Assembly: GCA_034520565.1 (NCBI GenBank) | Contig: JAXHNL010000002.1 | Location: 1,056,001 to 1,120,000 of the forward strand | Length of the DNA stretch: 64,000 bases | Direction of reading: 5' to 3' | From: Halodesulfurarchaeum sp. | GTDB taxonomy: Archaea > Halobacteriota > Halobacteria > Halobacteriales > Halobacteriaceae | Shown: positions 19,999 to 64,000 of the stretch, piece by piece | Layout: every line of letters starts with the position of its first letter | Position numbering within the stretch: position 1 is the stretch's first letter | The notes under the pieces: generated by a model | The model's input: the letters and a program-made list of their open reading frames with translations, nothing else | Database searches by the model: none | Told to the model about the DNA's origin: nothing | Made by a program: the position numbers and the translations under genes

Positions 19999-20099
19999 CG
20001 TATATGTCTCTGGGCGACCCTCCACATTGAAAATACTGGTTCGTCCCGGGGAGCGACCGGGTGCCGAACACATTTACCCGGCCAGTCCCTTTTTCGGGT

Positions 20100-20339
20100 A
20101 TGACGCTCACGTTGTACGCCCTCGACGGGTGTCCGGACTGCGAGCGGGTGATGGAAACCCTCGACGAACACGATCTCGAATACGACGTCCACTGGGTCGA
20201 AGCCGCGTTCTCCACACGCGACGTGGTCAAGGAGCTTAGCAACCAGCGTAGCGTTCCCGTCCTCGAGGACGACGAGCACTCGGTCGTCATGGCAAATGCC
20301 GACCGGATCATCGATTACATCGAGACCACGCTGGCATGA
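20100..20339 (+). CDS. Glutaredoxin-like protein
   Basis: LYALDGCPDC, SNQRSVPVL motifs. Confidence 0.88.
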   Translation: MTLTLYALDGCPDCERVMETLDEHDLEYDVHWVEAAFSTRDVVKELSNQRSVPVLEDDEHSVVMANADRIIDYIETTLA

Positions 20340-20866
20340 CGATCTACACCGGACGCGGAGACCAGGGCGAGACGGATCTCTTCGACGGCTCGCGAGTGTC
20401 CAAAACCGACGCCCGCGTCGTGGCGTATGGAACCGTCGACGAACTCAACGCTCTCGTCGGCGTGGTCCACCCCACCGGATATGAAGACATCGACGACCGC
20501 CTCGAGGCCATTCAAAACCACCTTCACGTGCTCCAGGCGGACCTCGCGAACCCCGAGACGGGTGGGGACCCGAGCATCGAGCAGTCACACGTCGAGTCCC
20601 TCGAGAACTGGATCGACGAGATGGACGCGGAGCTGGAGCCACAGACCGCGTTCATCCTCCCCGGCGGTGGGACCGCGGGAGCGAGGCTGCATCATGCCCG
20701 AACGGTCTGCCGGCGTGCCGAACGGCAGGTGCTGGCCCTGGCGGAGCGAGAGGCCGTCTCGGAGGCGGTCGTCGTGTATCTCAACCGGCTGTCCGATCTG
20801 CTGTATGTCACGGCGCGGTTAGCGAACAAGCGGGACGGCGTGCCGGAACAGCATCCGACGTATTGA
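20336..20866 (+). CDS. pduO: ATP:cob(I)alamin adenosyltransferase (PduO type)
   Basis: IYTGRGDQGET, AYGTVDELN, FILPGG, RTVCRRAER, YLNRLSD. Confidence 0.93.
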   Translation: MTIYTGRGDQGETDLFDGSRVSKTDARVVAYGTVDELNALVGVVHPTGYEDIDDRLEAIQNHLHVLQADLANPETGGDPSIEQSHVESLENWIDEMDAELEPQTAFILPGGGTAGARLHHARTVCRRAERQVLALAEREAVSEAVVVYLNRLSDLLYVTARLANKRDGVPEQHPTY

Positions 20867-20916
20867 GCGGCGAATCGGCAACGCTTAAGAGCGTCCTGTC
20901 ACTAGAGTCGTTCAGC

Positions 20917-20991
20917 GGGTCGGTGGTCTAGTCTGGCTATGACGGCTCCTTCACACGGAGCAGGCCGGCGGTTCGAATCCGCCTCGACCCA
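20917..20991 (+). tRNA. tRNA-Val (anticodon CAC)
   Basis: GGGTCGG/TCGACCC acceptor stem plus A, anticodon arm GCTCC-TTCACAC-GGAGC, T arm GGCGG-TTCGAAT-CCGCC; no encoded CCA. Confidence 0.95.
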
Positions 20992-21134
20992 TATTCGGCG
21001 ACTCTCACTTCGCAGCGACCAGCTCGCTGTGTCGCTGCGATGAGATCGCGGTCGTATATTGGTCAGCGGATTCGAGCCCTATCACGAGCGAGCTTGCGAG
21101 CGAAGTGATTTCGGTTCGAATCCGCCCCGACCCA
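20992..21134 (+). mobile_element. 143-bp ORF-less structured unit ending in a duplicate of the tRNA-Val 3' end
   Basis: cggttcgaatccgcc(t/c)cgaccca at 20969-20991 and 21112-21134; the first 89 nt match a unit at the tRNA-Leu locus (63171-63258, minus strand). Mobility is inferred. Confidence 0.75.
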
Positions 21135-21139
21135 TCTAC

Positions 21140-21350
21140 CGTTTGCTGCGCCTCGCTCACTACCGTTCGCTCGGCTTGCAAAAGCTGTCGCGCAGGAGCA
21201 GCTCCTGCTGGATGCCACGAAGCTTCGCTTCGTGAGCAGCCCAAAAGCCACCTCACCCCCTTCGGGGGTTCCTCGGCCCGAGCGCAGAGCGCTCGGTGAA
21301 TCGCGGCGCTCGGGTTCGCTGAACCGCTCGCGCCGCGAATGCGTTCAGCC
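21140..21350. repeat. Palindromic intergenic element with TTC/GAA-triloop hairpins
   Basis: tttgc...gcaaaagct, gcaggagc-a-gctcctgc, cacgaagc-ttc-gcttcgtg, ccaaaagccac, ccccc-ttc-ggggg; related element at 38231-38400. Right boundary approximate. Confidence 0.65.
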
Positions 21351-21426
21351 GATTTGGGTGTCGTTTGTGTCCCCTTCGCTGAGGGTCGGTCGTGCTCGGG
21401 AGTTTCGAATTGACCACTATTGCCGG

Positions 21427-23673
21427 CTACAACAACCGGTCCCGAAGCCGCTCGAAGAACCCACGCTTCTGGGCGCGCTCGGCGGAAATCATCGAGCAAT
21501 CGAGGTTCCTGACCAGACCGCTCACCGGCGATTCTCCCACCAGTTGGGAGAGCAATCCCCGTTCGCTCGCGCCCGAGATAACCAGTGATGCGTCCTCGGC
21601 TGCATCGACGATCGCCGGTTCGACGGGGCCGGTTTCGACGCGATGGGCTACGTCTTCGAGGTCGTGGTCGGAAGCCCATGCTTCGAGGAAGTCCCGTCCC
21701 TCCGTCGGTTCGTCGGCGACGTGCAGGAGCGTGATGTCCGAGTCGTACACCGAACGGAGATCCTTGGCGATCTCTGCGGAGAGGGCCGAATCCGGACCGC
21801 CCGCTGTTGGGACGAGGAGACTGGACGGATCGAACCCACGATCCTTGAAAACCAGGAAATCCGCGGGGAGTTCTCCGAATACCTCGTCCAGGGTTCCCTC
21901 GACCCGGCCGGTCGGGTGATGAGACTCCGGACCCCAGCCCATGACGACGAGGTCTGCGTCGTGTTCGCCGACCAGATCGAAGCCCTCCTGAATCGTCCGG
22001 TGGGAGAACACCGTCGCGGTCTCGACTGGGACGCCGAGTTCCTCGGCGTGGGTTTTGGCGGACTCGAGTAGCGATTCGGAGCGGTCACGCTCGGCGTCGA
22101 AGTGCTCGGCGGCATACTGGAGGGAAGTCTGTTCTGGGACCGAAATGATGTGGACCGCGTCGACGGTTCCGCCGCGTGCCTTTGCGATTGCCGCCGCGAG
22201 GGTGATGAGCTCCTGCTCGTGAGCCGGATTGGCGAGTGGCACCATCACCTTGAATTCCCCGCCCTCGGGATTCAGGCTCGTGGCCGCGGAGACGACCGAA
22301 TCGGGCATCTCCTCTTCCTGACTCGAGATGAAGTCCGAGAGGGCCCCTCGAACGGTGGTTCGTGACTGGGCGTAGGCGAAATACCAGGTGACCGCCCCGA
22401 GCACCAGGACGGCGCTGAATCCGACGACCTTCGGTTCGATGAAGACGATCAGCCCCAGCGACGTCAGCGCCCCCGCGATCGGGGTAAACGGATAGAGTGG
22501 CACGGTGTAGGAGGGATCGTAATCGGCCACGTTGGCCTCTCGGAACACGATCAAGCCGATGTTGAGCAGGGCATAAATGATCAGGTGGAGCACGCTTCCG
22601 AGGGTTGCGAGCAACTCGACGTTGCCGATCACGATGAACAGCAGGATGAGGCCCCCTGTAATCGCAATTGCCCGGTAGGGCGTGTTGAACCGGTAGTGAA
22701 CCTCGTTGAGCTTCGGGGAGATCAGCCGGTCACGGCCCATGGCGAAGTTGATGCGGGAGGAGGCGAGTATCGAGGCGTTCGCACTCGAGGCCGTGGCGAG
22801 CAACCCCCCGACCAGCAGGGCGATCGCGCCCGCCGGTCCGAGCAGCCGCCGACCGATCTCGACGACTGCGATGTTGCCAGCCAGCTGTTGTTCGGCGATG
22901 AACCCCGGCTCGACCGCCGCAGCCATCGTGATCAGGACGAGCGCGTAAATGACCGTGACGATGACGACGCTGCCGATGATGGCTCGCGGAAGGTTCCGAT
23001 CCGGGTTCTTGACTTCCTCGGCGACGCTGGTGATCTGGACGAAACCGAGGAATGAAACGAAGATGAGCCCCGTCGTCGTCAGCGTCGGGGTTAACCCTTT
23101 GCCTGCGGGCAGGTTTGCCGGGTCGGAACTGAACGCACCGACGACCGTAACCACGGCGAGGATACCCACGAGAATGGCGACGATCACGTTTTGAAGGGAG
23201 CCTGTTTCCCGCGCGCCGACGTAGTTGACCAGGACGAACAGGGTCGCACCGAAGAGGGCAAGGACTTTGACGACCGAGAGTGTGACCGGTCCAACGCCGA
23301 TCGCCCCGCCGAGCCCGAAAATCGTGCGGACGTACTCGCCGAACCCGACCATGTAAAACGCACTCGCGAATGCCAGCCCGAGCCAGTTCGCCCACCCGGC
23401 GATCGAGCCGAAAAGGGGGCCGAGGGCCCGGTTCACGTAGTAGTAAGCCCCGCCCGATCGTGGCATCGCTGTCCCGAGTTCGCTCGCGGAAAAGGCCGTC
23501 AAGATGGCTATTCCGCCGCCGATGACGAAAGACAGCACGGCGTGCCAGCCGGCCCGTTCGATGGCCGTGCCCGGCAGGACGAAAATGCCCGCGCCGATCA
23601 TCGTCCCGATACCGATCGTCAGTGCGGCCGCCAGCCCGAGGTCCTTCGAGAGTTCTGACTCGTGATGGCTCAT
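21427..23673 (-). CDS. APC-family amino acid permease fused to C-terminal UspA domains
   Basis: GTMIGAGIF, ELGTAMPRSGGAY, EEVKNP, about 12 TM helices, then VMVPLANP and LLVPTAGGP USP domains. Confidence 0.92.
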   Translation of the reverse strand: MSHHESELSKDLGLAAALTIGIGTMIGAGIFVLPGTAIERAGWHAVLSFVIGGGIAILTAFSASELGTAMPRSGGAYYYVNRALGPLFGSIAGWANWLGLAFASAFYMVGFGEYVRTIFGLGGAIGVGPVTLSVVKVLALFGATLFVLVNYVGARETGSLQNVIVAILVGILAVVTVVGAFSSDPANLPAGKGLTPTLTTTGLIFVSFLGFVQITSVAEEVKNPDRNLPRAIIGSVVIVTVIYALVLITMAAAVEPGFIAEQQLAGNIAVVEIGRRLLGPAGAIALLVGGLLATASSANASILASSRINFAMGRDRLISPKLNEVHYRFNTPYRAIAITGGLILLFIVIGNVELLATLGSVLHLIIYALLNIGLIVFREANVADYDPSYTVPLYPFTPIAGALTSLGLIVFIEPKVVGFSAVLVLGAVTWYFAYAQSRTTVRGALSDFISSQEEEMPDSVVSAATSLNPEGGEFKVMVPLANPAHEQELITLAAAIAKARGGTVDAVHIISVPEQTSLQYAAEHFDAERDRSESLLESAKTHAEELGVPVETATVFSHRTIQEGFDLVGEHDADLVVMGWGPESHHPTGRVEGTLDEVFGELPADFLVFKDRGFDPSSLLVPTAGGPDSALSAEIAKDLRSVYDSDITLLHVADEPTEGRDFLEAWASDHDLEDVAHRVETGPVEPAIVDAAEDASLVISGASERGLLSQLVGESPVSGLVRNLDCSMISAERAQKRGFFERLRDRLL

Positions 23674-61064: not shown

Positions 61065-62927
61065 CTACTCGCCGCCGCTCCCGTCAGTCGCAAACTCGAA
61101 TCCCGTCGAAGTGTTCCCGGCGGTCATCTCCCGTGTCGTCGACGGCCCGTCATCGGCGTCTCTGGCTCCGGCCTCGAACTCGAAATCGCCCGCGACGGCC
61201 GTCGTTTTCGAATTCGACCGGGACCGGCGGTCCGCCCTCCCTCCGGCTGCGGCCCGCACTTCGAACTGCGAGAGCTTCGCTTCCAGGCTCTCGGCGTTCT
61301 CGGCCAGGTTGCTCGTGTTCTTTGCCACCTCGTTGAGCGTCGCGGCTTGCTCCTCAGCCGCGGCGGCGACCGTCTGGGATTCGGCCGCAGTCTGGTCGCT
61401 GATCGCCGCGATGTCCTCGATCATGGCCACGACGTCCTGCATCGACTCGGCCTGTTCGGCAGTCGCGTCGTTGACCTCCTCGATGGAGGTGTTGATCTCC
61501 GAGACGTTCTCGGCCATTTCCTCGAAGGCATCCGTCGCGGTTTCGACGGTGTCGGCTCCGATTTCGACCCGCTCGTCCATCTCCTTGATCTCTTTGACGG
61601 TCTGTTCGGACTGCTCCTGCACTTCGGTGATCAGGGCCTCGATCTCCTCGGCGGACTCCTTGGTCTCCTGGGCCAGGGACTTGACCTCCTCGGCGACGAC
61701 GGCAAAGCCATCGCCGCTCGCGTCGGCCCGGGCCGCCTCGATGCCGGCGTTGAGCGCGAGGATGTTCGTCTGGTCGGCGATGTCGAGGATGACGTCGGTG
61801 ATGTTGCCGATCTCTTCGAGGGTCTCGTTGAGTTCGCCCACGGCCGCGGTCACCGACGCACTCCGCTCCCGGAGCGTCTCCATCTCGGTTTCGGCCTTTT
61901 CGGCGGCGTCACGGCCAGCTTCGCCCACCTCAGCGGTCTGGTTGGTGAGCTGGGCGACGTTGTCCGAGGAGGCGGTGATCTCCTGGATCGTCGCCGAGAG
62001 GTTCTCGGACTCGTTCGAGGCCTCGTCCAGGCGGCGGCTCTCTTGATCGACACCGGCGGAGATCTCCTGGACGGACTCGCTGATGTCCTCGCTCGCGTTT
62101 TTGACCTCGGCGGCGTTGGTCTCAACGCCCTTGCTCTCATCGGCGACCTCCTCGGCGAACGAGATGAGATCTTGCATCATCTCCTCCCACTCGTCCAGGG
62201 TCTCGTTCAGCGACTGTCCGACCGCGGCCATGGCTTCGTGGTCAGTGTTCGTGTCCAGTCGCTGGGTGAGATCTCCGTCGCCGATTCTGGCGATGGTCCG
62301 CCGGTAGGACTCGGCGGTGTCGGTCAATTCGGCGTTCCGGCGCTCGATGGTCTCCCGTTCTGCCTGAAGGTCCTCGATCCGCTGTTCGAGGTTCTCCTCC
62401 ATCTGGCTCAGTGCCGTTCCGAAGCTTCCCGGTACGTCCTCGTTCAGGACCTCCGCGTCGAATTTCTCGTTGCTCAGGGCGTCTGCCTGCGAACTGACCG
62501 TTTCGAGGGAGGCGTTCATTCGGTCGAACGCGCGAACGAGGTCGCCGATCTCGTCGCGCTGTTCGGTTTCGGGAACCGTCTCGTCGAGTTCGCCCTCGGC
62601 GATCGACTCGGCGACCGTCTTCATCTCCTGAATCGGCGTGACGAAATCACGTTTGAGAATCAGGATGGTGTTCAACAGTGCGCCGACGGCCAGGACGAAC
62701 ACGACGCCGAAGACGGCCATTTCGGCCGTCGAGAATACCTCCCGGAACGTCTGGAATCCCAACAGCGCGACCCCGAGCACGAAGATCGAGACGATGGCCC
62801 CGAACTGGAGGAGCGTCGCCATCAGCATCTTGCGCTCGACGGTCTTTGTCACGCCGAGGGCGTCCATGACGCCCCAGAGCAGCCGTTCGTAGTGCCCCAT
62901 CAAACCGCGGGTTTTCTCTGTGGGCAT
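61065..62927 (-). CDS. Methyl-accepting chemotaxis transducer (2 TM, HAMP domains, no large external sensor)
   Basis: Two adjacent TM helices, [37 protein letters not shown]...[13 protein letters not shown] signalling hairpin. Confidence 0.93.
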
Positions 62928-63001
62928 GGTAGCGATATGGCTGAGTTGTCTCTATCCTTCACTAAAACCCTATGGGTTGGTTTTTCAATATTGATAACTC
63001 C

Positions 63002-63406
63002 TGGGACCGATTCGAACGGGTTATGCTGTGACTGTCGCGCAGTTACTCGCAAGCGTCTCGCTTGATTCGCGGTTTCACCGCTCATCTTTTCCGAGACGCT
63101 TAACCCGCGAGCGTCTCGCTGCTCACGGGACCGGATTCGAACCGGAGGAAATCTCCCTTCGGTCATTTCCAGGGCTCGAATCCGGTGACGATTTACGATC
63201 GCGATCTCATCGCAGCGACACAGCAAGCTGGTCGCTGCGAAGTGAGAGTCGCTGAAAATGCGTGGGACCGGATTCGAACTTCTGTCACTTCGCTCCCGGT
63301 GGTCGCTTCGTTCCAACGTTCGAATCCGGTGACCGCATCCACACCGTCCATCACACGTCTCGCCCCACAGCAAGCTGGGGGCTCGACGGTGTGAGTGAAA
63401 GCGGAA
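63002..63406 (-). repeat. Tandem array of three 124-148 bp ORF-less units, each ending in a copy of the tRNA-Leu 3' end
   Basis: (tgcgt)gggaccggattcgaac on the plus strand at 63407-27 (the tRNA), 63259-79, 63127-42 and, degenerate, 63003-17. Confidence 0.85.
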
Positions 63407-63491
<85 letters not shown>

Positions 63492-63577
63492 GAAACGGAC
63501 GCAGCCGAGGATTGCCACCCGCCAAGTAAAAGCCCTTCTATTCGCCCGCTTTTGGGGTAAAATCTCCCGGCCGTCTC

Positions 63578-64000
63578 CTACTCGAGGACCGGGGCCGTGA
63601 CGTCCCGATCGGTGTCCTCGCCCTCGATGTCGTAGGGGTACTCGCCCGTGACACAGCCCATGCAAAGGTCCTCCCGCTCGGTGTCGATGGCTGCTGCAAC
63701 GGCATCGGGTGAGAGGTAGGCCAGACTGTCGGCGCCGATGGCCTCCTCGACCGCCTCGACGTCCTGGCCCGCGGCGATCAACTCCTCGCGTGAGGCCATG
63801 TCGATGCCCATGTAACACGGCGCGGTGATCGGCGGCGCGCCGATTCGGACGTGGACGGACTCCGCACCTGCCTCCCGGAGGAGGTCCACGAGCTGGCGCG
63901 AGGTGGTTCCCCGAACGATGCTGTCGTCGATGAGCGTCACGGTGCGGTTCTCGACCGTGCTCCGGATCGGATTGAGCTTGAGCCTGACCGCGCGCTCGCG
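63578..64000 (-). CDS. purF: Amidophosphoribosyltransferase, C-terminal part (5' end outside the window)
   Basis: LIDDSIVRGTT PRPP motif, PCYMGIDM, ADSLAYLS, CMGCVTGEYP. Confidence 0.95.
   Translation of the reverse strand, partial: RERAVRLKLNPIRSTVENRTVTLIDDSIVRGTTSRQLVDLLREAGAESVHVRIGAPPITAPCYMGIDMASREELIAAGQDVEAVEEAIGADSLAYLSPDAVAAAIDTEREDLCMGCVTGEYPYDIEGEDTDRDVTAPVLE

Follow-up and report, generated by a model that had tools for sequence, protein, structure and literature searches.

What are the short repeats that directly follow two tRNA genes in a 64,000-nucleotide (nt) stretch of a Halodesulfurarchaeum sp. genome (contig JAXHNL010000002.1, positions 1,056,001 to 1,120,000; hereafter the window)? 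An initial annotation, made from the letters alone, had placed the same ~140-bp element at the 3' ends of a tRNA-Val and a tRNA-Leu gene, each copy containing an antisense segment that matches its own host tRNA. We found that the element is real at both sites and that it belongs to a family present in nearly every Halobacteria genome sampled, rather than being special to this one. Such units are apparently undescribed: we found no description of them in the main texts covered, largely from outside subscription journals, on haloarchaeal mobile elements, integrases, small RNAs and termination. At a probability of roughly 40%, we read them as Halobacteria-wide, non-coding, non-autonomous integrative cassettes with a folded site, in which an inverted and a direct copy of the tRNA end enclose a conserved hairpin. 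The window derives from a 1.86-Mb assembly of two contigs that is 81% complete (G000 in the coordinates below).

The units share a common order: one or more X hairpins that begin a few bases past the tRNA end, an inverted copy of tRNA positions ~52-73 (T'), a Y hairpin, and a direct copy of the same segment (T). In the predicted fold T' pairs with T, making T'-Y-T one long hairpin around Y. The two arrays of the window are composed as follows, R1 being a covariance model that we built from 26 T'-Y-T hairpins.

20917..20991, plus strand: tRNA-Val(CAC), host gene of the first array (ARAGORN; Rfam tRNA, 58 bits)
20992..21134, plus strand: complete Val unit, 143 nt, X-T'-Y-T (sequence; fold z = -5.8; R1 match at 21061-21137, 60.7 bits)
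20998..21049, plus strand: Val X hairpin, type X1, loop CAGCTCGCTGT (folds; 92% identical to X of Leu unit 2)
21059..21078, plus strand: Val T', inverted and partly decayed copy of tRNA positions 52-73, TTGGTCAGCGGATTCGAGCC (17/22 against the reverse complement of the tRNA 3' end)
21079..21112, plus strand: Val Y hairpin, lower stem ATCAC/GTGAT (fold; lower-stem covariation in alignment A1)
21113..21134, plus strand: Val T, direct duplicate of tRNA positions 52-73, GGTTCGAATCCGCCCCGACCCA (regular expression, sequence)
63407..63491, minus strand: tRNA-Leu(GAG), host gene of the second array (ARAGORN; Rfam)
63259..63406, minus strand: Leu unit 1, 148 nt, with X at 63347-63400, T' at 63318-63337, Y at 63281-63317 and T at 63259-63280 (R1 match, 59.6 bits; 82% identical to unit 1 of tRNA-Val(GAC))
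63123..63258, minus strand: Leu unit 2, 136 nt, the copy noticed in the initial annotation, with X at 63201-63252, T' at 63173-63188, Y at 63144-63172 and T at 63123-63143, the 3' end of which is decayed (R1 match, 62.2 bits)
62999..63122, minus strand: decayed third Leu unit without T', with other small hairpins, ending in the remnant GTTCGAATCGGTCCCAGGA (62999-63017)

The Val unit begins with the base that follows the discriminator of tRNA-Val(CAC), and its T' pairs with 21113-21126 in the predicted fold. Its T differs from the tRNA at one position only, with C66 in the duplicate and T66 in the gene. This T66, at window position 20982, gives a G7.U66 pair, and the tRNA-Val(CAC) of six relatives carries C66. 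A near-copy of the Val unit (97.9% identity, 142 nt, blastn) lies behind tRNA-Val(GAC). Between the two arrays of the window, Val-unit positions 3-89 align with 63256-63171 of the minus strand at 91.95% identity over 87 columns (blastn), in line with the 81 of 89 positions previously aligned by hand. The antisense segments that had been quoted, AGCGGATTCGAGCC for Val and ACCGGATTCGAGCC for Leu, are present, each with one G.T position opposite T54, and they pair with the duplicate T-arm in the predicted fold, as had been suggested. Their extent had been underestimated, as T' is a decayed inverted copy of the entire 52-73 segment rather than of the T-arm alone. The same applies to the Leu locus, where the single copy noticed proved to be accompanied by another complete unit and a decayed third. 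The reported lack of an integrase holds inside the units and near both loci, neither array having a PF00589 match nearby, but not elsewhere in the genome, where integrase islands share tRNA ends with the units.

A regular-expression search allowing up to 4 errors retrieved 82 units, in 52 arrays, that are closed by a T duplicate of ~52-73, which runs from position 51-54 to position 73. These units are 68-233 nt long (median, 135 nt) and non-coding, none of the 82 encoding a protein. The match of T' to the tRNA 3' segment reached 21/22 for tRNA-Gly(GCC), 21/23 for tRNA-Cys and 20/20 at locus L049; the acceptor portion of T' is usually decayed, and the alignment extends to the acceptor complement in 22 of 52 proximal units. 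Terminal inverted repeats are absent (5.97 of 14 positions complementary, versus 6.04 in mismatched controls). As sense RNA, the Val unit folds at -72.5 kcal/mol (z = -5.8), a stability reached by none of 200 shuffles, compared with -65.8 kcal/mol (z = -4.5) for the antisense strand and z = -5.2 for sense DNA. More generally, the sense strand folds more stably than the antisense strand in 26 of 30 units. At the gathering score over the whole window, Rfam matched only tRNAs (E up to 1 in 20000-22500). Readings of Y as a K-turn, box C/D, bulge-helix-bulge or hammerhead element were dropped after inspection by eye, Rfam being the sole test with a tool.

The hairpins show co-variation. In an alignment of the 26 T'-Y-T hairpins from which R1 was built, 77% of the cells of the T'.T helix are paired, and covariation amounts to 0.231 versus 0.160 in shuffles, none of 500 reaching the observed value. 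Position 63, for example, is GC in 11 and CG in 9 hairpins, and T-loop position 57 is UA in 13 and CG in 8; pairing weakens past position 65. The lower Y stem has double changes in 5 of 5 pairs and a covariation of 0.500 versus 0.212 in shuffles (0/500). The two helices together contain 36 G.U cells versus 20 A.C cells, a moderate bias to the tRNA-sense strand. T' also follows its host, since unusual host T-loops are mirrored in T' across many loci and many genera:

Gly(CCC): T-loop TTCAATT, T' GGGAATTGAGCC
Lys(TTT): T-loop TTCAAGT, T' GGGACTTGAACC
Val(TAC): T-loop TTCAACT or TTCGACT, T' GGGAGTTGAGCC or GGAGTCGAGCC
His: T-loop TTCAATCTCGC, T' GCGAGATTGAA

The antisense segment had been suspected of acting as a re-programmable guide. 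The tracking that this requires is present but imperfect, as the Leu(GAG)-type CGGATTCGAGCC occurs in tRNA-Leu(TAG) units, and selection on the hairpin or local homogenisation would account for it equally well. One locus separates the two copies of the tRNA end. At L049, tRNA-Arg(TCT) is an allele with three compensated pair changes (A7-T66, T50-A64 and G49-C65); T' corresponds to this present allele at 20 of 20 positions, and the duplicate T is the allele of other genera. L058 shows the opposite arrangement, with a mixed T'. As the copies at L049 are two natural alleles, at least one of them must come from elsewhere, which argues against a simple target-site duplication. In view of L049 and L058, we consider a duplication by staggered cuts unlikely, although it may account for other units.

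ARAGORN predicts 44 tRNAs genome-wide, at least four of which are probably false (T-loop-less and coding-like by eye; G000:C2:72076, 216975, 574211 and 1121758). The last 17 nt of the tRNA are copied again within 1.5 kb downstream in 20 of the 44. A looser search gave 30 units behind 19 tRNAs, such that about half of the tRNAs of the genome carry units, and additional units lie behind tRNA-Met and tRNA-Ile. At tRNA-Pro(CGG) and at an intron-containing tRNA-Arg(TCT) missed by ARAGORN, the units are displaced by islands. R1 gave 39 matches in its own genome, 32 sense-strand hairpins and 7 antisense shadows, all of them in tRNA 3' flanks or in island-displaced flanks.

R1 matched 149 of 151 Halobacteria genomes in a sample of the class, covering 56 of 57 genera, and many genomes had at least 28 matches. 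A same-strand tRNA lies directly upstream of 28 of the 30 best class-wide loci. In a sample of the phylum, all matches fell within the halobacterial order, in five of its families (19 of the 20 genomes from these, and the present one), and none was found in 130 genomes from 20 other families, showing that tRNA genes alone do not trigger R1. Of 11 R1 matches that were initially unplaced in two complete genomes of this genus, 10 follow tRNAs and the remaining one follows an island attR core. An exact IUPAC pattern of the Y core occurs in at least 119 stretches of named genomes, from Halorubrum, Haloferax, Halobacterium, Haloarcula, Natrinema, Halosimplex, Halanaeroarchaeum, Halodesulfurarchaeum and many more genera. 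Among the matches listed (80 loci, 84 Y-core matches), 65 have an upstream same-strand tRNA, at up to 150 nt in 49 cases, at 150-500 nt in 15 and at 1826 nt in one; among these same listed matches, 12 of the 84 Y cores lack a T-loop-like sequence after Y, and 7 of 84 have no predicted tRNA within the 92-6135 nt of upstream sequence. Together, these results establish a repeated non-coding family tied strictly to tRNA 3' ends, as the initial annotation had proposed, with an antisense segment that follows the neighbouring tRNA over many loci. The Y core occurs in the genera of Haloferax volcanii and Halobacterium salinarum, in which the units are directly testable.

A sense-strand-specific structure that co-varies is also what the main rival explanation would predict. 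The units would then be structured 3'-trailer modules of the pre-tRNA, co-transcribed from the tRNA promoter and endowed with a host function. T'-Y-T would imitate an acceptor/T-arm minihelix or pair with the 3' half of the tRNA itself, and might act as a processing signal, as a back-up terminator or in the control of folding or maturation; copy number would vary through unequal recombination of the T repeats, and selection and gene conversion would keep Y uniform. We regard this as possible but doubtful. It accords with the near class-wide presence of the units, with their start at the first trailer base and with the position of five-T runs, which tend to come after the arrays, most units beginning with only 2-4 T. 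The 22 of 52 proximal units in which T' reaches the acceptor complement have a hairpin base that mimics acceptor stem plus T-stem, and at L049 it is the tRNA's own evolved allele, not that of the duplicate, that T' follows. Set against these points are the roughly half of tRNAs that have no unit, with different carriers in relatives, which makes units dispensable for a given tRNA; the fast compositional turnover within the genus (see below); the mostly decayed acceptor part of T', with pairing that fades past position 65; and the lack of an Rfam family. Comparison with known tRNA-like signals is similarly divided. The units share with t-elements and mascRNA-type signals a location in the trailer of a tRNA transcript, and with tRNA-like signals in general a hairpin base that imitates acceptor stem and T-stem and ends at a discriminator-like base, but in the units the T-loop is paired, the acceptor part is often decayed, and the repeats are tandem and strain-variable. 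In Haloferax volcanii, whose trailers share this location, PMC3495736 describes a stable ~60-nt 3' trailer of pre-tRNA-His seen by northern blot, and PMC7237163 two RNA 3' ends mapped after a tRNA-Pro gene; we count both for a trailer RNA. The two explanations are not exclusive, as a mobile cassette may also be transcribed.

Modularity, polarity and turnover of the arrays led us to favor integrative cassettes. The Val and Leu(GAG) units have X1 in common (92% identity) but unrelated Y parts; conversely, Leu(GAG) unit 2 and the Leu(TAG) units agree in T'-Y (90-97% identity) and have unrelated X parts. Almost the same Y core accompanies differing T' and T copies behind Gly, Ile, Glu, Val, Asp, Leu and Arg genes of different genera, and the junctions between modules sit in conserved T-loop letters on either side of Y. 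Among 24 arrays with at least two units, 9 have fewer errors in the proximal than in the distal duplicate, 15 have equal numbers and none has more; the T' that better matches the tRNA is that of the proximal unit in 16 arrays and that of the distal unit in 6. Proximal units are thus better kept, so new or best-maintained units adjoin the tRNA. Composition changes within the genus: behind tRNA-Val(GAC), this genome carries units u1 and u2, G011 carries u2 only, and in G001 u2 stands behind a different proximal unit, with the same downstream flank in all three; further genomes of the genus have other proximal units.

From these observations, we infer the following mechanism, including its recombination chemistry, single-stranded intermediate and enzyme. 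The attachment site would be the tRNA segment from the T-loop to the discriminator (~52-73), and the cassette would consist of this segment plus the X hairpin, T' and the conserved Y hairpin. Insertion would keep the tRNA gene intact and leave a second copy of the segment behind the cassette, so that units would accumulate head to tail, the most recent one adjoining the tRNA. T' would pair with the direct copy on the tRNA-sense strand and close a long hairpin around Y, and this folded site might be recognized by a trans-acting recombinase, in the manner of an integron attC or CTX-phi attP. The most likely enzyme would be a tyrosine recombinase, provided by the host or by the islands at the same tRNA ends. 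Integrative cassettes fit the extent of the duplicate, the polarity of the tandems, the T-loop junctions, the two-allele case, the cargo described below and the lack of an own enzyme. Attachment sites of the T-loop type are expected to have an extent like that of the duplicate (51-54 to 73).

Two of the closest known systems have folded attachment sites. Integron cassettes are likewise small and promoter-less, are stacked head to tail at a fixed site with the newest proximal, and carry at their 3' end an imperfect inverted repeat, attC, that folds as a strand-specific single-strand hairpin and is conserved in structure more than in sequence. As with integron cassettes, some of the present units, which are mostly empty, hold one small gene (Fic, nucleotidyltransferase). 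Unlike in integrons, the anchor is a tRNA gene that differs per array rather than an attI beside intI, no IntI-like gene lies beside the arrays, the inverted repeat copies the 3' segment of the host tRNA, and the terminal hairpin Y is conserved, not variable. The second parallel is that of CTX-phi and of integrative mobile elements exploiting Xer (IMEX), which have no integrase and carry the host site twice in inverted orientation, with a spacer of tens of bases; as single-stranded DNA, the two copies fold so as to mimic the duplex host site. There too, integration regenerates the host site and permits tandem arrays. The host site of our units is the T-arm/3' end of a tRNA, not dif, and the units are gene-less and ~140 nt long; in contrast to CTX-phi, we know of no single-stranded replicon for them.

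Two loci show cargo, which is positioned between the tRNA and T'-Y-T. In Halorubrum, a unit at tRNA-Ala(GGC) encloses an open reading frame with an NTP_transf_2 (nucleotidyltransferase) domain and a neighbor without Pfam match. The other locus lies in the present genome, as does the most complex of the arrays that include integrase islands.

G000:C2:902279-903965, minus strand: 1.7-kb long unit behind tRNA-Gly(GCC), with a 400-aa Fic/DOC protein with a helix-turn-helix tail and a decayed T'-Y-T end
G000:C2:516870-530630: tRNA-Arg(TCT) with intron and two tandem integrase islands, each ending in an attR core plus a hairpin unit

Tyrosine recombinases are the sole recombinase class that we detected in the genome, and the islands that encode them share tRNA ends with the units and are interleaved with them in arrays. 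Behind tRNA-Arg(TCT), a 9-kb island with the integrase at its far end comes first, followed by attR, a unit and T; next comes a 4.5-kb island that also has an integrase, again followed by attR, a unit (the second) and T. A 20-kb island followed by attR and a unit lies behind tRNA-Pro(CGG), and at tRNA-Arg(TCG) the unit is proximal and a distal 8-kb segment ends in a 13-nt repeat. The gene next to attR has its stop ~30 nt ahead of the core, as described for SNJ2-type integrases, which fall into tRNA-specific subgroups (PMC5861418). Pfam Phage_integrase (PF00589) matched at four loci of the genome, in separate islands or elsewhere and none inside units; no unit has a recombinase, HUH or reverse transcriptase gene of its own, in keeping with the initial annotation.

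This interleaving could also mean that the units are passive scars, what remains after larger integrase elements have repeatedly integrated, been excised and lost internal parts, with neither activity nor function of their own. The integrase islands and 13-nt attR cores in the same arrays are what such an origin would leave, as are the decay of distal units and the other small modules that end in shorter copies of tRNA ends (13 nt, or 7 nt in the case of GGTCCCA at tRNA-Pro). We nevertheless hold it to be very improbable: scars would not retain co-varying helices, and neither a Y core identical across many genera, nor the uniform size, nor an inverted copy matched to each host tRNA would be expected, and no parent element with such ends was found in the phage and plasmid collections. 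As in tRNA integrase islands and integrase-less, att-flanked elements of the cis-mobilizable (CIME) type, direct repeats of the tRNA 3' end flank the units, which accrete in tandem and are interleaved with the islands here. The islands differ in sharing positions 61-73, not 22 nt, and in having neither an inverted copy nor X/Y hairpins; in contrast to integrase-type elements, the units are short and class-wide and encode no integrase.

A transposase of another class would be needed if the units were palindrome-associated transposable elements (PATEs) of the IS200/IS605 type. A Y1 HUH transposase would then bind X and Y as the subterminal hairpins, and T' would serve as a guide, pairing with the left cleavage site, at the tRNA 3' end, and with the right one, at the 3' end of the unit itself. 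Movement would take place in single-stranded form, with insertion precisely behind a sequence that the guide mirrors. As such a guide must match both flanking copies, this would explain why T' tracks both. Strand-specific structure, insertion right after the discriminator, the lack of terminal inverted repeats, and two subterminal hairpins with a common tip motif (GA-NN-GNA-NN-GA) all point the same way, and IS605-related PATEs are described in Haloquadratum (PMC3119063). Like our units, those are short, non-coding, free of terminal inverted repeats and equipped with palindromes near both ends, but they are dispersed, not tRNA-anchored and without a copy of a target gene segment. The enzyme distribution makes this explanation improbable. 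Pfam Y1_Tnp, like RVT_1, had no match in this 81%-complete genome, and in the class sample Y1_Tnp was present in 102 of 151 genomes and absent from 49, with units in 149. The genomes without Y1_Tnp have 15-27 R1 matches, and both genomes without R1 matches have Y1_Tnp; as units occur without Y1_Tnp and the reverse, they do not depend on that transposase, in contrast to PATEs. No autonomous relative was found, and the present host is tracked more closely by the duplicate than by T', as at tRNA-Leu(TAG), which would be unexpected if the right end traveled with the element. The tip motif (GCGAAGC type; loop of 3-4 nt) is common to X, Y and other intergenic hairpins, as at 21093-21103, and its 2-bp mini-stem shows compensatory changes. 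With a flanking stem of at least 4 bp it occurs 154 times genome-wide, versus 43 in reversed-sequence controls, and a tRNA precedes 38 of these 154 by no more than 1 kb; such a frequency marks it as a general feature of intergenic hairpins, not a unit-specific one.

Other known element types were rejected. Miniature inverted-repeat transposable elements are at odds with the absence of terminal inverted repeats and with a repeat that is a 22-nt gene segment, whose two copies are different alleles at L049. Casposons have terminal inverted repeats, a 14-15-bp target duplication and a Cas1-type integrase; the units have no terminal inverted repeats and a 20-22-nt duplicate, and the single Cas1 locus of the genome lies far from the arrays. 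A tRNA-derived retroelement resembling a short interspersed nuclear element would not agree with the lack of RVT_1 in the genome and with the copying of positions 52-73 only, one copy being inverted. The arrays are not CRISPR arrays, as the segments between T repeats are homologous structured units rather than unique spacers. Finally, the Rep-Arvir/SNJ2 origin hairpin adjoins orf19-like genes, not tRNAs (PMC13107129).

Several results weigh against integrative cassettes. The islands share with the units only the 13-nt core (positions 61-73), not the 22-nt segment, and searches with a well-conserved unit gave no match in the phage collection and a single 30-nt match in the plasmid collection. 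In the 36 units in which the upstream and downstream copies differ, T' agrees with the upstream copy in 12, with the downstream copy in 14 and with both equally in 10; by eye, differences at 54-73 mostly favor the upstream copy, a trend confounded by the decay of distal copies. No excised circle, empty-site read or integrase-dependent movement was seen, the material being metagenome contigs only. Contigs of four runs from two studies, placed on 62400-64000, do contain joints that skip 63150->63407 (256 nt) and 63279->63406 (126 nt), approximately the array minus two or one Leu units, but the sides of the joints are only 21-24 letters long, under the reliability mark, and may stem from other organisms or from the repeat itself, and we draw no inference from them. 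The longer copies with their own recombinase that had been envisaged did not turn up, as we found no full-length element with an integrase between X and T'-Y-T. On the mechanistic side, a crossover in the T-loop would swap the tRNA's 3' end, so cassette lineages would have to be tRNA-specific, and the same Y subtypes at many tRNAs therefore call for extra recombination or gene conversion. Moreover, recombination works poorly on a double-stranded circle of 140 bp, which means that a single-stranded form must be assumed, and near-universal presence with a highly conserved Y core could equally reflect a host function. The cassette mechanism stands as a candidate.

A further version, which we consider unlikely, makes T' a base-pairing address: a conserved host recombinase, working on a folded single-stranded site, would insert the unit after any tRNA whose 3' segment T' mirrors. 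Such a system would be an archaeal counterpart of integrons and IMEX in which every tRNA gene serves as attI. If the address were rewritten from the target during or soon after insertion, this would explain why the same Y core stands between host-matched T' and T. It would amount to an enzyme-less, tRNA-programmed insertion system of an undescribed kind.

Mobile units would make up a non-autonomous family of great abundance, with tens of copies per genome in nearly every sampled haloarchaeon, and would represent a new use of tRNA genes as landing sites, by a folded site that copies its target; they would also be ready-made decoy attachment sites shaping the integration of viruses and islands. 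If they are functional trailer RNAs, they reveal an unrecognized layer of tRNA gene organization in a model archaeal class. On either account, tRNA flanks, attachment-site calls and island boundaries in Halobacteria are full of these units, which affects annotation.

Other small modules accompany the arrays. On the plus strand, 21135-21330 holds another repeat family that comes after arrays, ccgtttgctgcg ... ctcacccccttcgggg ... gagcgctcggtga; the ccgtttgctgcg-type family also follows the tRNA-Val(GAC) array (G000:C2:~1042450-1042658) and is shared by G011 and G001 at their tRNA-Val loci. Behind the Pro(TGG), Cys and Phe arrays lie related CCACTTTTT...TCGTCGGGT... modules with a five-T run, which are present in other genera too (L054, L058); they may hold the real terminator. 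On the minus strand, 63018-63122 comprises a different small module, a GCGAGAC...GTCTCG hairpin, ATTTTG and then a GCGAGCGGTGAAACCGCGAGC hairpin. The GCGAGAC...GTCTCG module recurs in decayed units and before some X hairpins, and also at G000:C2:1214000-1214300 and 1599034-1599090. At L038, L042 and L053 (tRNA-Gly(TCC) arrays) and at G000:C2:71170-71245, some units end in the 13-nt core after GCGGGAG, and their tip motif lies on the other strand; these may be modules in inverted orientation or what is left of integrase attachment sites. Lastly, small modules at tRNA-Pro(TGG), L072 (G001) and L079 (G010) end in the last 7-8 nt (GGTCCCA) of the tRNA, and these two genomes of the genus do not have them in the same order with respect to the hairpin unit.

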